From the IMG/VR virus record IMGVR_UViG_3300050145_000014: a DNA stretch of 64,000 nucleotides; one strand, written 5' to 3'. This stretch comes from a virus (lineage: Duplodnaviria; Heunggongvirae; Uroviricota; Caudoviricetes). The notes beneath the pieces were generated by a model. That model saw nothing but the letters and a program-made list of their open reading frames with translations. It did no database searches and was not told where the DNA came from. How positions within the stretch are numbered: position 1 is the stretch's first letter; the number at the start of each line of letters is the position of its first letter. Shown one piece after another: positions 22,263-64,000 of the stretch. The translations under genes and the position numbers were made by a program.

Positions 22263-22337
22263 TGGTAGGGCTGCAGGGCCAACGATCCCTGATCTGATGG
22301 TTAAAAGCCATCTGCTTCACCTTAAAGCTTCAACCCC
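22263..22337 (-). tRNA. tRNA-Lys (anticodon UUU)
   Basis: Acceptor GGGGTTG/CAGCCCT + A + CCA; D-arm GCTT-TAAGGTG-AAGC; anticodon arm GATGG-CTTTTAA-CCATC; the T-loop is unusual (8 nt). Confidence 0.65.
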
Positions 22338-39199: not shown

Positions 39200-39273
39200 C
39201 TCTCCATAACTCAATTGGATAGAGTAACTCCCTTCTAAGGAGTAAGTTAGAGGTTCAAATCCTCTTGGAGAGA
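39200..39273 (+). tRNA. tRNA-Arg (anticodon UCU); 3' CCA not encoded
   Basis: Full cloverleaf read: acceptor CTCTCCA/TGGAGAG, D-arm ACTC-AATTGGATA-GAGT, anticodon arm ACTCC-CTTCTAA-GGAGT, T-arm AGAGG-TTCAAAT-CCTCT, discriminator A. Confidence 0.8.
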
Positions 39274-39306
39274 CTCAGGGCTTTACCTAATTTTAAAAGG
39301 AATTAT

Positions 39307-57163: not shown

Positions 57164-60100
57164 TTAAACAGCTACTGTTCTTAGGGAGTCGCCATTGTCA
57201 ACTCTCTTAATTACCTTAGCAATATCAGCGATATTTGTAGCAACGCTAGACCCTTCTGCTCTGTCTTCTACACGCATGGCTTCTAGTTTATCTAGAATCT
57301 TTCCAAGCATTGTGCTAGATTGTTCCGTGTAGGTAGCAATCTGTGCAGTTGGTGAAACTGACGCTGTTTGTGTTTGGATATCAGACAAGGATGTTCCACC
57401 TGTTGATGCACCAATAACAGACATTAGCTCATTCTTCACGCTTGAAAGAATTCTTTCATATTCTAGAGAAGACCCTGCGTTGGCTGCAGCAAGTTCTAGC
57501 AGTTTATCAGCATAGTTGGTTAAACTATCCATTGCGGTAGTATCGCCAGTCTTTGCTAATTTAAGTTGGGCAGCAAATGTAGCTTTTGCAGCATCAAAGT
57601 TAGTTGAGACGTTCCCTTGATCTAATCCAAGATTTGATACATACTCTTTGATAGAGTCTGAGAAATCTTTGAACGCTTGGGATGCATCATCTACAGATGA
57701 TACAATCTGGGAGAACCCGTCTGAAAGTCCTAGGAGTTTACCTAGAAGCTTATCAGCCTCATCAGTGCCTGTCGGCATACCAGCTACAAGATCTTTAAAT
57801 CCTTGTGCTGTAGTCGGCATAGCAAGACCAAGAGCCTCAAAAGATTTTCTCATCTTTGAAGTCTGGAGCGATGTTCTTTCAGCCTCTGTTAAGAAACTAT
57901 CTTGGAAAGCCGACATGGCTTCTTCGAGAGAAGAAATCCCACCAGCACCACGAACTAAGGATTCTGTAACAGCGTTACCGTTGACACCGATAAATTGCAA
58001 TGCTGCACGGACTTCAGTCAGAGACTTGTAAGCATCTGCAATATCCTGTGCTGATCCGGTAAGATCGCTAAGAATGTCTGCAACACCGGAAACTCCCTCT
58101 TTAGCTAAGAGACTCTCACGAACCAGATTGAGTGTCACATCCCCTTGCTTATTTGCAAGGTCGGTGTATTTTATCATACCAATGCCTAGTTTGTCTAGGA
58201 CATTTTCTGCAGTATCAACCCCAGATGAGACTCTTAGAACAGTTTGGTAGTAACCTTCATTAACCTTTTGGAAACTCTCGAATCCAGGGATAATCTGTTT
58301 TGTCAGGTCATCCCCTAACTTCGAGAAGACTGCATCAAGTCTCTTTTGTTGATCTTCCCCTGTTAATCCGTTAAGGTCAATTCGGTCGATAGAAACAACT
58401 GCTGAGTTGATACGGTCCACAACTGTTTGGAGATTAATACCTAAAGGTTTGGATGCTAACTTGATCGAGTCTACAATACTTACAATGACTTTTGTGATAC
58501 TATCTTCAGCCTCTTGGGCTAGATCGTTAATTACTGTTGATCTATCTGTAGAAGTTGTAATTCCAAGTGTCTTATTCCTCTTCTCAATAGTTGCCCAACT
58601 CTGCCCTTGGAAGCCTCCTGAAAGGATACTTGAAAGGCCTTGTTGACCAGCTTGGATACCTTGACCGGTCACTGAAGTTTTAGTACCAAATAGTCCACCA
58701 ACCATCTTACCAAAAGCATCACCAAATCCTAGGAATTCGCTGAGGCCTGCAGTAACAACTGCTACACCAGTGCGCAGAGCCCCGGAGATCGCTCCAGCGA
58801 TATCATTTGAACGGTATCCTGTTTTGATTCCTGAAAGTCCTGTTGAAATAGCTCCTGACTGCACAAGGAAGGTAGCTAGCCCTGCTGTGTTATCTTGAAT
58901 TGCCATCAAGGCAGTGAGCATCTTAGAGCTAGTCTTCGATGTACCGTACTCGATTTCTTTTAAGTCAGAGATGAGATTAGATACAGACTTACTCTCTGCA
59001 TTCTTATCACCTAGGACAGTTCCTGTGCCTTTATTTATCTTGACATCAGATCTAGACCCTCCAGAGAGCGCACCCTTGATAGCTACACCTAGACCTACAA
59101 CAACTGCTGCCATCGCAGCACCTGCAGCAAAAGCTGCGGGGCCGGGATTAGATGCTAGTTGGCCCAGGATAGCTTCAATACCTAATGCAGCAGAACGAAG
59201 ACCTGACTGAGCTAGGGAGAATAATGTAAAACTGGATTCAGCACCCATCTTTGTTGCCATCGCTGACAAAGCAATTGAAATTTGTTCAGCCATTAGGGCT
59301 TTCTCAACGACATTTGCTGCTTTACCTAAATCTGTCTTCTCACCGAAATAAGATTTAGCTGCCCCAGCCATGTTCATATAAGCGCCTAGTTGAGCATTCT
59401 TATAATCTTCAATATTTTTCTTGTACTCAGGGCTGTCTTTAGCTAGCTTAGATTGTACATTATTAAAGGATTCTGCAGCTTGAGACATTTGTAAGAATCT
59501 TTGTGCAACATCACCTAAAGCACTTGAGAAACGGTTCCACCCTTTTGCAAGAGTTTCTCCGATATCGAGACCTCTTGTTGCTTTTGTAAACTCACCTAAC
59601 TTACTTTTATCAAAAGCAAACAAAGCATCGGCCTTTATTTGATCAGGAGTCTTCTTAAGTTTTCTTTCTATGAGTTCTAGAGCAATCGCAAGACCAAAAC
59701 TTGTATCTCTCGCATTCTCTAGTGCTTCCTTCAGAATAACAATTTCGTCATGTGTTGTACCAAGAGTAGTAGATGCAGCTTTATAAGCATCTGAAGCCTT
59801 TTTAACAGCTTCGGCTGACTCACGCTGCTTCTGAATTAATTTATCTTCTTCAGTTGTTAGACGAGCTTTTTCTTCTTGCATGGCCCTATACCCTACAGCT
59901 TCACGGTCACTCATCCCAATGGTCTTGATAGCAGTTTCTAGAGTTGAAGCTCTTTGTTTAGCAAGGGAATTCTCACTCAATTCAACCTTCTTAATTTCAT
60001 CACCAAATGCCTTCAATGAAGTCTGCATTGAGATGATTCTATCTTGATAGGGTTTTAGGAAATCAGATTCAGCAAGATTCTTTTGGTCTTTAATTTCATT

Positions 60101-63100
60101 ATTGAACTTAGCAACCTTGTTTGCAATCTCATCTAGGGCTTTATCTTTACCTTTGCTTGAACCTTGTGACTTGACTACCTTTTCTTGACGAGCTAACTCA
60201 GTGAGTTCTTTCTTTTGGTAATCCTCTAGTAATCTAATCTTTTCATCTAGTGCAGTTTTAGCTGCAGCATTGACTCTCTTATTAGACTCTTCTGAGTCCT
60301 TTAATCCAAATTCTTTGTACTTATTTTCAAGAGCTAGAGAAACTTTTAGTGCCCTCTCAATCACTTTGAACTTCTCATCAAAATCTGACTTTAGTACTGC
60401 AGAGTTATCAACAGGTAGTTTGATACCTGGGATTTGTGAATTGATCTTATTTTGGAGATCTTCGAATTCTTTCTTGTAGGACTCAAATAAAATTGCAGTT
60501 GACTCAGAGCTAATAGACTCTGGCATCTTCATCTTACGGGTATCTTCTTTAAAGCGAGAATCTTGAAACTCGGACAGAGACATTTTTTTGCGGGCCTCTG
60601 TAGTTGACTTGTCTTGTGCTTTTTGTAGAAGAGGATTTAGGATAGACTGGTCTTCAGCAGAAAGAGTATTCTTAGATTTCTCTTGTTCTTGATAGAGTTG
60701 CCTTTTTAATCTAATTAGCTCATAGGTTAAGGCAATACCTTCCTCGTCAGAGAGATTCCCGCTGTTAATTTTTGCAGATAGTTCGGTTATCTGTGTTTCT
60801 AGGTTTTTGCCGACTGGACGACCAATCCCTAATACACTGTCCCACATTTTATCAAACCATGTACTAACTTCATGAGAGAACTCTTCCAAAGTTCCATAAT
60901 TTGCTTTGATATCATTTGCAGCGGCTTCGGCGCCTTTTGCATATTCCTTTTGAGCAAGATCAATAGCCTCGAAAGTTTTCCCTTGTCTTTCTAATGAGGC
61001 AACTTGTTCTAGGATCTTAGGAGGGATTGTCCCTAATTGTGAAGCTAGTTCCGCTAGGCCTTTTGAGGGTTCAGTTGCCAGTTTCTTGAAGTTCTTTACA
61101 GTTTCTTCAACAGCAATACCGGCTGATTTTTCTAGAGCTTGAGCAGCCTTGGCAATTGTCAAGAATGATGAGCTTGTAAATCCACCTTCTTTTGCCATAG
61201 CAGTTAGGGTTGACATGGCTACGTTACCTGACCCTCCTAGGGCTTCAAAAGCCTGTACCGCTGCATGAGCAGAATGTACGTTCATCCCTAGTGAAGCGCC
61301 TGTGAGATTTAATGACTTATTAAGTTCTTCATTCTGTTTCATACTCTTGTAGGCAGAATAGGCAAATAAGCCTAACCCAGCAACAAGGGCTACGATTGCA
61401 CCTCCCATCAGGAAAGATGCCACAGCAGAGCTTCTCATCCACTGAGTCATTTTAGCAATAGGAGATAGTCCGCCATTTAGGCCAGCCTTGAAGTCTTCTA
61501 GAGCTTGTTGGCCAAATAAAACACCATACCCAAAGTCAGTAAAAGCAACGATCGAGGTCTGCACTGCATTTGTAGCAGCTTGTCCCATCTTCATAAAGCC
61601 ATTAACAACTAAACTACCAACAGCAGCACCCACGTCCTTAATACTCTTAGCCATTTGAGTCATGGAGTTTTTCAGGACTTCAGGCATTCTACTAGCTTCT
61701 ACGTTGAACATACCAAATTGATCTCGTAATTGACCACCTTGTTGTAGGAGGATAGTCAAAGGACTTTGACCTGTAGCCATACCGACGAAGATGTCAGTAA
61801 TCTGAGGGGCAACGGCTCTAGCTAGATGGTCAACGGCTTTCTGAGAGTTCAGGCCTTGGACTTTCTCAAGCTGGATACGGTAAGCAACCATTTCTGCAAT
61901 TTGTTCCCCCAGCGGCTTTTTAGTGGCGATCAGGTCATCTCTGAACCTTTTTAAAGCGTTTAGGTTACCAGTCCCCATGTTTTTATTAAAGTCTGCAAGT
62001 TGATTATTCAACTTTTCCCAAGCGGCACCGATCCTATTTACAGCATTTACAGAATTTTTAGCAGCAATATCTTGAGTCTCGATTGAGGATTTTAAGGTGT
62101 TAACCTCTTTTGCGAGTTTTGTGTATTCTTGGGTTGTAGCTTTTAGGGCAACTGCAATTTCTTTCTCAGTCTTGCCCTCAAGTTGCATCTTTTCAGTTAC
62201 GCGAACACGTTCCTGTCCTAGGTCTTTAAGTTGACGAAGGGTTAAACCTGACTGAGTTGAGTATTCTGATTCAGCTTGCTTCATCAGCCCAAGCTCATTC
62301 TTCATAGCTTCAATAGCTGAAAGGCTCTTATCGAAAGGGTCTCCACCAATCAGTTTACGTTGTGACTTTAGAACATCCCCGATATTCCCGATTTCTTCAG
62401 CAGCTAGCCCGGCAGCTTTTGCATAAGCTAGAATAGAGCTTTGACCTTTTGTGAAACCTTCGGTCATGAACTGACGGATAGCTTCTTGACGTTCTAGGAT
62501 AGTGGTTGCTTTAGCTACTTCGTCAGAGACTTGCTTGACAGCCTTACCTTCTACAGTTGCACGATTCTGAGCAGCAATAGCTGCGCGGTCCTCTGCTTCT
62601 TGCCTCTTAGCTGCAGCAAGGCCTAATTTCTCAGCCTGGATGGCTTGAACAGCTTGCTCCTTAGTCAGGGCTAGTGCTAGCTTATCTAGACCTGTGGAGG
62701 CATCTTTCAAAGACTTTAGTTTCTTAGCTAGTTCATCAATTGCGTTTGCTGAATCACGAATGGCAGTTACGTCAAGACCTACCTTGATTTGAGCACCTTC
62801 TTTGAAATAGTTCTTAATGTTGTCAACGGCATTCTTTGCAGCCTCTAATTTAGCAATAGCTGTATCAGAGATGTTCAGGCGAAGAACAGCCTCCGTTGAA
62901 GTTAAACGGTCTACTGCATTCGCTAATCCGTTGATCAGTGTTAATGAAGTTTTTAAAGCTGTTGTTTCCACAGCTAATTTAAAGCTTGTTTTCTTAGACT
63001 GGAGTTCCCCAAGGTTTACCGCAAGTTTTGCAGTAGCTGTCGTGGCATTCCCTAGATCCTCTGAATTAACTTTAATACTAATGTCTTTACCAAAAGCTTT

Positions 63101-63205
63101 TGATAGTTTTTCTGCTGAAGCAGCTAATGCATCAATTTTAGTTAATGCTTTGTCTAGATCATCAGTAACTGCTGTGAACTTAATAGTGTCTAGATTGATA
63201 CTCAT
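57164..63205 (-). CDS. tail tape-measure protein (2013 aa)
   Basis: Very long Ala/Lys/Glu/Leu-rich coiled-coil protein with Gly-rich hydrophobic central and C-terminal segments; RBS AGGAG upstream. Confidence 0.85.
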   Translation of the reverse strand: MSINLDTIKFTAVTDDLDKALTKIDALAASAEKLSKAFGKDISIKVNSEDLGNATTATAKLAVNLGELQSKKTSFKLAVETTALKTSLTLINGLANAVDRLTSTEAVLRLNISDTAIAKLEAAKNAVDNIKNYFKEGAQIKVGLDVTAIRDSANAIDELAKKLKSLKDASTGLDKLALALTKEQAVQAIQAEKLGLAAAKRQEAEDRAAIAAQNRATVEGKAVKQVSDEVAKATTILERQEAIRQFMTEGFTKGQSSILAYAKAAGLAAEEIGNIGDVLKSQRKLIGGDPFDKSLSAIEAMKNELGLMKQAESEYSTQSGLTLRQLKDLGQERVRVTEKMQLEGKTEKEIAVALKATTQEYTKLAKEVNTLKSSIETQDIAAKNSVNAVNRIGAAWEKLNNQLADFNKNMGTGNLNALKRFRDDLIATKKPLGEQIAEMVAYRIQLEKVQGLNSQKAVDHLARAVAPQITDIFVGMATGQSPLTILLQQGGQLRDQFGMFNVEASRMPEVLKNSMTQMAKSIKDVGAAVGSLVVNGFMKMGQAATNAVQTSIVAFTDFGYGVLFGQQALEDFKAGLNGGLSPIAKMTQWMRSSAVASFLMGGAIVALVAGLGLFAYSAYKSMKQNEELNKSLNLTGASLGMNVHSAHAAVQAFEALGGSGNVAMSTLTAMAKEGGFTSSSFLTIAKAAQALEKSAGIAVEETVKNFKKLATEPSKGLAELASQLGTIPPKILEQVASLERQGKTFEAIDLAQKEYAKGAEAAANDIKANYGTLEEFSHEVSTWFDKMWDSVLGIGRPVGKNLETQITELSAKINSGNLSDEEGIALTYELIRLKRQLYQEQEKSKNTLSAEDQSILNPLLQKAQDKSTTEARKKMSLSEFQDSRFKEDTRKMKMPESISSESTAILFESYKKEFEDLQNKINSQIPGIKLPVDNSAVLKSDFDEKFKVIERALKVSLALENKYKEFGLKDSEESNKRVNAAAKTALDEKIRLLEDYQKKELTELARQEKVVKSQGSSKGKDKALDEIANKVAKFNNEIKDQKNLAESDFLKPYQDRIISMQTSLKAFGDEIKKVELSENSLAKQRASTLETAIKTIGMSDREAVGYRAMQEEKARLTTEEDKLIQKQRESAEAVKKASDAYKAASTTLGTTHDEIVILKEALENARDTSFGLAIALELIERKLKKTPDQIKADALFAFDKSKLGEFTKATRGLDIGETLAKGWNRFSSALGDVAQRFLQMSQAAESFNNVQSKLAKDSPEYKKNIEDYKNAQLGAYMNMAGAAKSYFGEKTDLGKAANVVEKALMAEQISIALSAMATKMGAESSFTLFSLAQSGLRSAALGIEAILGQLASNPGPAAFAAGAAMAAVVVGLGVAIKGALSGGSRSDVKINKGTGTVLGDKNAESKSVSNLISDLKEIEYGTSKTSSKMLTALMAIQDNTAGLATFLVQSGAISTGLSGIKTGYRSNDIAGAISGALRTGVAVVTAGLSEFLGFGDAFGKMVGGLFGTKTSVTGQGIQAGQQGLSSILSGGFQGQSWATIEKRNKTLGITTSTDRSTVINDLAQEAEDSITKVIVSIVDSIKLASKPLGINLQTVVDRINSAVVSIDRIDLNGLTGEDQQKRLDAVFSKLGDDLTKQIIPGFESFQKVNEGYYQTVLRVSSGVDTAENVLDKLGIGMIKYTDLANKQGDVTLNLVRESLLAKEGVSGVADILSDLTGSAQDIADAYKSLTEVRAALQFIGVNGNAVTESLVRGAGGISSLEEAMSAFQDSFLTEAERTSLQTSKMRKSFEALGLAMPTTAQGFKDLVAGMPTGTDEADKLLGKLLGLSDGFSQIVSSVDDASQAFKDFSDSIKEYVSNLGLDQGNVSTNFDAAKATFAAQLKLAKTGDTTAMDSLTNYADKLLELAAANAGSSLEYERILSSVKNELMSVIGASTGGTSLSDIQTQTASVSPTAQIATYTEQSSTMLGKILDKLEAMRVEDRAEGSSVATNIADIAKVIKRVDNGDSLRTVAV

Positions 63206-63252
63206 AGTTTCTCCTGTTATATCTATTTAAGACTCATTGAGTCTTAAAGACA

Positions 63253-63290
63253 TATAACAAAAGCCGGATAGCTTTTAAACTACCCGGCTT
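63253..63290 (-). terminator. hairpin AAGCCGG-N16-CCGGCTT with a downstream T-rich tract on the minus strand, between the chaperone T-frame stop and the TMP start
   Basis: Read directly; the T-run is imperfect (TTTGTTAT). Confidence 0.35.
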
Positions 63291-63291
63291 A

Positions 63292-63689
63292 TTTGTCTTT
63301 TGTACTTTTACTTACCTCTTGGCAATGCTTTAAGAACTCTGAATCAAAAGCCTGAATTAATTTTACTTCAAAGAGGTTTGGCTCAATGCCTAGTAAAGAA
63401 TAATAAGCTTTGATCTCTGAAAATTGAATAGGGTTAGGGCCAAATCCACCTGTTCTTGCTGACGACAATCTTGTGAAGTCCTCCCAAACAAAAACAAACT
63501 GTTCTGGTAATTTAACATCCTCATCAAGCTCAGGAGGTCTATATCCGGTGTTCCTCTCTACAGCCTGGAGATGTTCCCTGAGGGATCTCCCGTCTTTCTG
63601 TAAAGCACCGAGTTTAAACTCAACCTGAGCAAATTTTAAGGCTTCTTCAAAATCACTGAAAGTTGGTAATATCGGTTGCAGCCTCCATC
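63292..63689 (-). CDS. T segment of the tail assembly chaperone (a start-codon-less open frame, +1 relative to G), expressed only as a G-T fusion
   Basis: Frame open from 63689 to the TAA at 63292-94 (about 131 codons) with no ATG/GTG/TTG until near its end; overlaps the last 36 nt of G. Confidence 0.55.
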
Positions 63690-63988
63690 ACCTGTTCACG
63701 AATCCAAGAGTGCTCTGTAAGAATTCGGGAAGCTTCCTCTGCTGAGAATAGAATATCCTTATTACCTTCCTGTAGGCCCTTCCAAGAAATGATACGAACT
63801 ACAGCAGCTTCAACAGCGAGTTCTTCAGCTTCTTCTAGAGTATAGTCATCATCCTTATTACGCTTTGCAGCTAGACGTTGACGAGTTTGCATCTCTGTGT
63901 ACTTCTTACGAATGTAAGCACGGACAGGCTTAGACTGGTCGCCACGGACCTTAATAAAGGCCCCTGTAGGCTTGCCAGTTCCTGGCAT
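63653..63988 (-). CDS. tail assembly chaperone G
   Basis: 111-aa ORF immediately upstream of the TMP with a downstream overlapping open frame, the canonical G/GT arrangement. Confidence 0.6.
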   Translation of the reverse strand: MPGTGKPTGAFIKVRGDQSKPVRAYIRKKYTEMQTRQRLAAKRNKDDDYTLEEAEELAVEAAVVRIISWKGLQEGNKDILFSAEEASRILTEHSWIREQVMEAATDITNFQ

Positions 63989-64000
63989 GGTTAGTTCAAA

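Follow-up and report, generated by a model that had tools for sequence, protein, structure and literature searches.

The window analysed here is a 64,000-nucleotide (nt) stretch of DNA from a virus of the class Caudoviricetes (IMG/VR record IMGVR_UViG_3300050145_000014). Near its end lie two overlapping open reading frames (ORFs), G and T, which match tail assembly chaperone families; T lies in the +1 frame relative to G and has no usable start codon. Comparison of related junctions makes it probable that T is reached by a low-level programmed +1 frameshift, in which tRNA-Phe in the ribosomal peptidyl (P) site would slip from UUU to UUC at AAC_UUU_C and yield a G-T fusion. This reading is carried by the relation of the two frames, the homology of both products, the absence of a start codon for T, the conservation of UUU_C among relatives and a shift window that is confined to a few codons.

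Two chaperone frames in a +1 relation

G occupies positions 63653..64000 on the minus strand and ends with the stop codon UGA 63655-63653. It was first taken for an ORF of 111 residues (hereafter the original prediction). The ORF is real, but this length is only a lower bound, because the window edge cuts the gene: its frame is open to base 64000 and the residues FELT precede ATG 63988. This ATG is internal to G, as judged from contig L095 and all other relatives, where G has 130-137 residues. In L095 the junction is identical to that of the window (AAC TTT CAG TGA) and G has 134 residues, which places the true start ~57 nt beyond the window end. A 97%-identical database protein, P0001, is also 134 residues long and has the N-terminus MGFDLAANNLSVKCEEGYEFELTMPGTG. 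G matches the PHROG families phrog_313, ‘tail assembly chaperone’ (E value 5.6e-16), and phrog_8233 (7.8e-6), and its database homologues, of 131-146 residues, carry PF27119. The chaperone names of these PHROG and Pfam families are annotations and not tested functions.

The T frame opens at 63687, immediately after TGA 63690-63688, and contains 132 sense codons. It is thus long and open as predicted, with slightly different limits (63689 and 131 codons had been given), and the short overlap with G measures 35 nt, where 63656-63689 had been proposed. Six-frame translation of the minus strand places G codons at 1 mod 3 and T codons at 0 mod 3, so that a T codon starts one base downstream of a G codon. 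As the original prediction had it, T is therefore in the +1 frame (formally also -2) and not in -1. At the junction the G frame reads ACC AAC UUU CAG UGA and the T frame reads CCA ACU UUC AGU GAU UUU GAA. The part of T that follows the proposed shift comprises 122 codons (63292..63657, minus strand), begins AGU GAU UUU GAA (SDFEEALKF...) and is closed by UAA 63291-63289.

T contains the Phage_TAC_18 domain (PF23812; 63328..63561, minus strand; Pfam E value 1e-16), which covers residues 43-120 of the 132-residue frame, and it also matches phrog_3817, ‘tail chaperonin’, and further PHROG tail-chaperone families. Both halves are united in phrog_8233 (271 positions), whose first half matches G and whose second half matches T. 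A search of solved structures in the PDB with a G-T profile returned nothing relevant.

No ATG occurs anywhere in the T frame, and the first ATG, GTG or TTG is TTG 63468, at codon 74 of 132 and within the conserved domain. The claim that T has no usable start codon is thereby borne out, except that the first candidate lies in mid-frame and not near its end. Across 57 distinct relatives the first canonical start is scattered from codon 7 to codon 110 past the shift site, and none is conserved in position.

Relatives of the locus

A blastn search of the region against 50,697 phage records gave no match, so relatives are detectable at the protein level only. By identity of G, the closest isolates are Limnohabitans phage DC31 (PQ492658.1, L001; 54%) and Curvibacter phage P26059A (KY981271.1, L002; 48%). 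Both have T in +1, with the junctions CUG AAC UUU CGA UCC GAG UGA and ACU AAC UUU CGA CCC AAA UGA, respectively. A further 85 loci were added by scans of viral contigs and metagenomes; the metagenome scan was built on an alignment of fused sequences, with search patterns placed inside G and away from the junction. Over all loci, including the isolates and more distant phages, T lies in +1 in 75, in -1 in 13 and in frame 0 in one, and six are incomplete. Junctions were aligned on a conserved Trp 15 codons upstream and the site itself was not used. The conservation counts below refer to 59 distinct +1 junctions, and the nucleotide alignment contains 34 sequences.

In GenBank, G is a ‘hypothetical protein’ in both isolates; the T region is unannotated in DC31, and for P26059A the record has a 75-residue fragment whose start is internal. 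None of the 80 best matches in a collection of 5.8 billion proteins covers both halves of the fusion. Together with the missing or fragmented T of the two isolates, this indicates that gene callers and frameshift predictors miss this class of gene. DC31 is assigned to Pakpunavirus, a genus described in a 2025 paper as containing a lytic Pseudomonas myovirus, yet in its tail module it agrees with P26059A, which is a siphovirus.

A conserved and confined candidate shift site

The proposed shift site, AAC_UUU_C, spans 63658..63664 on the minus strand. AAC 63664-63662 would lie in the exit (E) site, UUU 63661-63659 would occupy the P site, and the aminoacyl (A) site would hold the zero-frame codon CAG, which starts with C 63658. 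The homologous Phe codon is TTT in 58 of the 59 junctions and the base that follows is C in 57; the two junctions that lack TTT_C at this codon still have it one or two codons away. UUU_U stands in place of UUU_C in locus L076. The preceding codon is AAC in 48 junctions and AAT in eight, and the following codon is CGA (30), CAG (7), CAA (6), CTN (7) or another CGN (7). For comparison, TTT makes up 66% of Phe codons in the same genes, and C follows 7.6% of TTT codons.

Protein-level conservation does not account for all of this pattern. Third positions beside the site have an entropy of 1.8-1.9 bits, with synonymous sites near saturation; the synonymous neighbours have been replaced again and again, but the third base of TTT has stayed, which argues for conservation beyond the need of the protein. 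Likewise, the A-site codon among relatives may be CGA, CGC, CGG, CGT, CUN, CAA or CAG. The amino acids vary in both frames and the C is retained, which points to a constraint on the nucleotide sequence. TTTC is the sole invariant block in the nucleotide alignment. UUU-C had been singled out in the original prediction, and indeed no other nucleotide block is conserved in practically every relative whose T is in +1.

The position of the shift can be narrowed further. The overlap is as short as 11 nt in at least 12 junctions, which have the form xUR AAC UUU CNN UGA (for example, CUA AAC UUU CAG UGA). Here the first A of AAC is the last base of a +1-frame stop, and G terminates one codon after UUU. 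Only Leu, Asn, Phe or the next codon can therefore occupy the P site during a productive shift, and of these only UUU re-pairs, with UUC. Third-position variability follows the G frame up to TTTC and the T frame directly after it. A +1-frame stop lies just upstream of the site in 39 of the 59 junctions, a frequency that matches ordinary Leu codon usage.

The G stop is found 6 to 21 nt past the first U of UUU, at distances that differ among relatives, and is thus not part of the signal. The proposed slip of tRNA-Phe on UUU-C was placed by the original prediction at or near the stop codon; ‘near’ fits, as the stop is one to six codons past UUU in relatives. A shift at the stop codon itself was rejected, both for the variable position of the stop and because re-pairing from CAG to AGU is impossible. 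A slippery heptamer of the X_XXY_YYZ type was sought in the overlap (63653-63687) and none was found. Two relatives with T in +1 (L014 and L074) read A_AAU_UUU_CGA, which combines a potential -1 heptamer with the +1 site, and on this sequence could in principle shift both ways.

Proposed slip of tRNA-Phe

Under the proposed mechanism, most ribosomes would finish G (~134 residues) and terminate at UGA 63655-63653. A small fraction would slip by +1 while peptidyl-tRNA-Phe, with its anticodon GAA, is on UUU 63661-63659 in the P site, and the tRNA would re-pair with the overlapping UUC, replacing a G:U wobble by a G:C pair. The GAA anticodon pairs better with UUC than with UUU. The next codon to be decoded would be AGU 63657-63655, and translation would continue through the 122 T codons. 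The predicted product is a G-T fusion of ~255 residues in which ...TDITNF is joined to SDFEEALKF..., and its tryptic junction peptide would be EQVMEAATDITNFSDFEEALK. The corresponding +1 junction predicted for DC31 is ...GQILNFDPSEIEEAVAFAK.

By analogy with gpG and gpGT of phage lambda, many copies of G and a few of G-T might coat the tape measure protein, with the T domain recruiting the tail tube protein. The G:G-T ratio in lambda is ~30:1, as given in a review (PMC5009743); by the same analogy, a shift rate of a few per cent or less would be enough. We infer the slip to be P-site +1 re-pairing of low efficiency (a few per cent or less), along with the roles of G and G-T.

No conserved downstream RNA structure accompanies the site: RNAalifold on 34 junctions gave 0 pairs, and the 70 nt downstream have a mean folding z of -0.55 across relatives and -0.16 in the window. 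The fold of a 141-nt segment of the window gave z = -0.06. DC31 and P26059A fold better than shuffled sequences individually (z = -2.5 and -3.1), and Rfam gave no match above threshold. On these results a conserved structure was rejected. In 37 of 55 junctions a Shine-Dalgarno-like GGAGG occurs 20 nt upstream of the P-site codon, and the other 18 lack it; this element was rejected as a stimulator, being too far from the site by the standards of prfB and coinciding with Met-Glu-Glu codons.

The failure to find either kind of stimulator weighs against a programmed shift, and several further points do so as well. The A-site codon of the window, CAG, accounts for 36% of the phage Gln codons, so that there is no evident ‘hungry codon’ pause. 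CGA is 13% of Arg codons in the window; among relatives CGN fills the A site in 37 of the 59 junctions, CGA in 30, and the prevalence of CGA may simply reflect an Asp codon (GAY) of the T frame. UUU_C occurs 33 times elsewhere in the same genes with no sign of programming. Finally, Asn-Phe is also conserved as protein, which explains part of the conservation, though not that of the third position.

Alternative explanations

The P-site +1 slip was weighed against four other explanations. The strongest of these, though still unlikely, is that T is made separately, by non-canonical initiation or by termination-reinitiation after the G stop, with no fusion formed. T-like ORFs are annotated as genes of their own in some distant relatives (Mannheimia phage), the database protein P0080 is T-only with its own Met, and gene callers produce a 59-residue fragment from TTG 63468 in the window. 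However, this fragment would miss half of the PF23812 domain, and the lack of any start conserved in position (codons 7-110) is hard to reconcile with independent initiation. The periodicity of the T frame begins at UUU_C, upstream of the G stop, and UUU_C is fixed, whereas the stop may follow UUU at anything from 6 to 21 nt. Moreover, the ‘separate’ Mannheimia genes bear the lambda heptamer G_GGA_AAG in their overlap.

Less probable again is a Mu-type -2 shift, in which the P- and A-site tRNAs would both slip two bases back and an extra Gln would precede T. Since -2 and +1 lead to the same frame, frame bookkeeping cannot separate them, and for cluster N mycobacteriophages a -2 shift is annotated. 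The tail chaperone of Mu uses GG_GGG_CGA, with CGA in the A site (PMC3458567), and CGA is the commonest A-site codon in the present clade. Re-pairing speaks against it: tRNA-Phe would come to stand opposite ACU, and the tRNA of the A site (Arg, Gln or Leu in different relatives) opposite UUC, and neither can pair. A -2 shift also leaves the invariant UUU and C unexplained while the rest of the A-site codon varies. It would retain the zero-frame Gln (...TNFQSDFEE...) and predicts the junction peptide EQVMEAATDITNFQSDFEEALK.

Transcriptional slippage, by which stuttering of RNA polymerase would bring T into frame in some mRNAs, is more doubtful still. The runs of A or T known to support polymerase slippage are far longer than T3. 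Only T3 is present at the site (a T4 lies further downstream), and what is conserved is TTT plus a C rather than a long run, although there are genes in which such slippage can take the place of a ribosomal frameshift (reviewed in PMC5009743). An assembly or sequencing indel that split one frame, or a decaying T pseudogene, is scarcely credible: a one-base error would look alike in a single sequence, but the same +1 offset recurs in two independently sequenced isolates and at least 70 metagenomic contigs from many samples, and T is conserved as a protein (PF23812 E values of ~1e-16 to 1e-18).

Lineages with T in other frames

Eight loci (L058, L064, L066, L069, L080, L084, L089 and L094) have T in -1 and carry the heptamer A_AAU_UUU or A_AAU_UUC. 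In the close -1 relatives this heptamer sits on the same Asn-Phe codons that form AAC_UUU_C in +1 relatives. Two -1 subgroups nest among +1 taxa, with identity bootstraps of 1.0 and 0.99; each subgroup was compared with the +1 taxa, the other subgroup and the outgroup, and the +1 taxa were nearest. This pattern, based on neighbour-joining and identity bootstraps and not on a rigorous phylogeny, suggests that the direction of shifting changed at least twice in this family.

Seven distant phages with a homologous T were also compared and all have T in -1. At the homologous position, Salmonella PMBT28, Stenotrophomonas AXL_1, Pseudomonas PAKlein3 and Xanthomonas Xp12 carry U_UUU_UUC, Mannheimia 1152AP2 carries the lambda heptamer G_GGA_AAG, Pasteurella Pm86 carries G_GGA_AAC and Roseobacter CRP-6 carries GAU_UUU_A.

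One lineage appears to do without a shift. In L065 (JRYE01012902.1, ~1170-1661), a single short contig containing Ns, a stand-alone G ending AAC TTC GTT GAT TAA is followed by a hairpin and then by a second gene. The latter has a G-like domain in frame with T. The Phe codon on this contig is TTC, and a frameshift is unnecessary.

Taken together, we lean, with some reserve, towards the view that the conserved Asn-Phe pair is an evolutionarily bidirectional shift site. Two or more changes between a -1 heptamer (A_AAU_UUY, U_UUU_UUC) and the stimulator-free +1 site AAC_UUU_C would have taken place among its lineages, with the G:G-T system kept throughout. The +1 form, in most cases UUU_CGA, would then be a bacterial and phage counterpart of the UUU_CGN motif known from influenza PA-X and amalgaviruses, and the pair would be the first G-T pair shown with +1 slippage of tRNA-Phe.

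The most attractive aspect of the system is that shifting seems to alternate between -1 and +1 on one and the same pair of codons. The clade offers a compact 4-nt +1 site in ~60 natural variants, with built-in controls in the sister lineages that carry -1 heptamers on the same codons and in the lineage with two separate genes. For two members, Limnohabitans phage DC31 and Curvibacter phage P26059A, phage and host are both in culture. The way in which a bare UUU_C sets a ratio, whether the A-site codon tunes it and how shift direction evolves are questions that would thereby become accessible.

Organization of the locus

At this end of the window every gene lies on the minus strand. G and T lie directly upstream of the gene for a tail tape measure protein of 2013 residues (57164..63205, minus strand), which matches phrog_24, ‘tail length tape measure protein’ (E value 3.6e-67), and 83 nt separate the T stop from the start of this gene. 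The order in L095 (92% nt identity) is tail terminator (PF13554), tube (PF18906), G (PF27119), T fragment (PF23812) and tape measure. The tube protein upstream of G has 405 residues in L095; the tube gene lies outside the window here. The position of G/T between tube and tape measure, together with its composition, is canonical for a G / G-T chaperone pair. The original prediction of such a pair upstream of the tape measure gene thus agrees with the gene order and with the matches to phrog_313, PF23812 and phrog_24.

Directly 3' of the T stop codon is a terminator-like GC hairpin with a T-rich tail (63261..63290, minus strand). In 45 of 52 distinct relatives an equivalent hairpin, with a different stem sequence, lies no more than 65 nt past the T stop; among shuffled controls this holds for 2 of 52. 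The element may act as an attenuator, lowering transcription past the tube and chaperone genes into the tape measure gene. Between it and the tape measure ribosome binding site is a 45-nt near-perfect palindrome (63215..63259, no strand assigned), which consists of two 22-nt arms, 91% complementary and 1 nt apart, and occurs as a single copy in the window. In relatives its place is taken by a second, AT-rich hairpin; possible roles are an RNA processing site or an operator.

The window also encodes tRNA-Lys(UUU) (22263-22337, minus strand) and tRNA-Arg(UCU) (39200-39274, plus strand). Neither reads the codons of the shift site. The two tRNAs suggest a higher use of AAA and AGA in the phage (42% GC) than in its host.

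Comparison with known systems

To our knowledge, G-T frameshifting is among the most conserved forms of viral recoding and nearly all characterised cases are -1, and we know of few programmed +1 sites in bacteria, with prfB the main one. G-T frameshifting is thus classical, and T in +1/-2 is already known from Mu, cluster N mycobacteriophages and HSTV-2, but the UUU_C site appears to be undescribed and unannotated. No description of a +1 G-T site at UUU_C involving tRNA-Phe was found in the open-access literature, where an earlier mention is possible, and the papers on P26059A and DC31 mention neither a frameshift nor a chaperone.

The release factor 2 gene, prfB, shifts by +1 on CUU_UGA_C, with the stop codon in the A site and a Shine-Dalgarno sequence 3 nt upstream. 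It shares with the present site +1 P-site re-pairing near UGA in a bacterial setting. The differences are that the A site here holds the sense codon CAG, the position of the stop is variable and GGAGG lies 20 nt upstream.

Among tail chaperones, gpG/gpGT of lambda arises by a -1 frameshift on G_GGA_AAG, a feature conserved in long-tailed phages according to the relevant section of PMC5009743 (citing Levin 1993; Xu, Hendrix and Duda 2004). As in lambda, the overlapping ORFs lie between tube and tape measure, and a start-less second ORF is reached near the end of the first; by analogy, the expected outcome would be a fixed low ratio of G-T to G. Distant members of the T family (1152AP2 and Pm86) even keep G_GGA_AAG or G_GGA_AAC at the homologous spot. 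In contrast to lambda, the shift here is +1, an X_XXY_YYZ heptamer is absent and re-pairing would involve only one tRNA, that in the P site. No similarity of the G and T sequences to those of lambda was detectable in the searches run.

The tail chaperone of Mu is made by a -2 frameshift on GG_GGG_CGA, as reported in the passage of PMC3458567 that cites Xu 2004 and Baranov 2006. Its T is in the same relative frame (+1 = -2), the genes are likewise tail chaperones and CGA is frequent in the A site here too. However, the run of G in Mu permits tandem -2 re-pairing, whereas AAC_UUU_C permits only +1. Two further systems have a chaperone second ORF outside the -1 frame: the haloarchaeal myovirus HSTV-2, whose shift is called ‘very likely +1’ (PMC5009743), and the cluster N mycobacteriophages, annotated as -2. 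These are unrelated phages of unrelated hosts, and their descriptions contain no UUU_C site, the shift sites themselves being uncompared.

The closest parallels in mechanism come from outside tail genes. UUU_Ynn is described as particularly liable to +1 frameshifting in bacteria, with no additional signals (PMC5009743), as at the UUU_Ynn site of E. coli argI (Schwartz and Curran 1997, in the summary that PMC5009743 provides). The tetranucleotide is the same, as is the re-pairing of tRNA-Phe from UUU to UUC, and neither a stop codon nor a stimulator is needed. Those events are adventitious or at the level of error, whereas the present one has been fixed by selection across a phage clade and opens a functional domain.

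In influenza A virus, PA-X is produced by a +1 shift at UCC_UUU_CGU with low efficiency and no known stimulator, and related UUU_CGN sites occur in amalgaviruses and chronic bee paralysis virus. These cases involve eukaryotic ribosomes and RNA viruses, and the A-site codon of the window is CAG and not CGN. In both systems, however, the P site holds UUU, the motif is conserved at synonymous positions, no 3' stimulator is known and the shift is +1, at a level that is low for PA-X and probably low here. UUU_CGA, which conforms to the UUU-then-CGN arrangement of PA-X, is found in half of the phage relatives.

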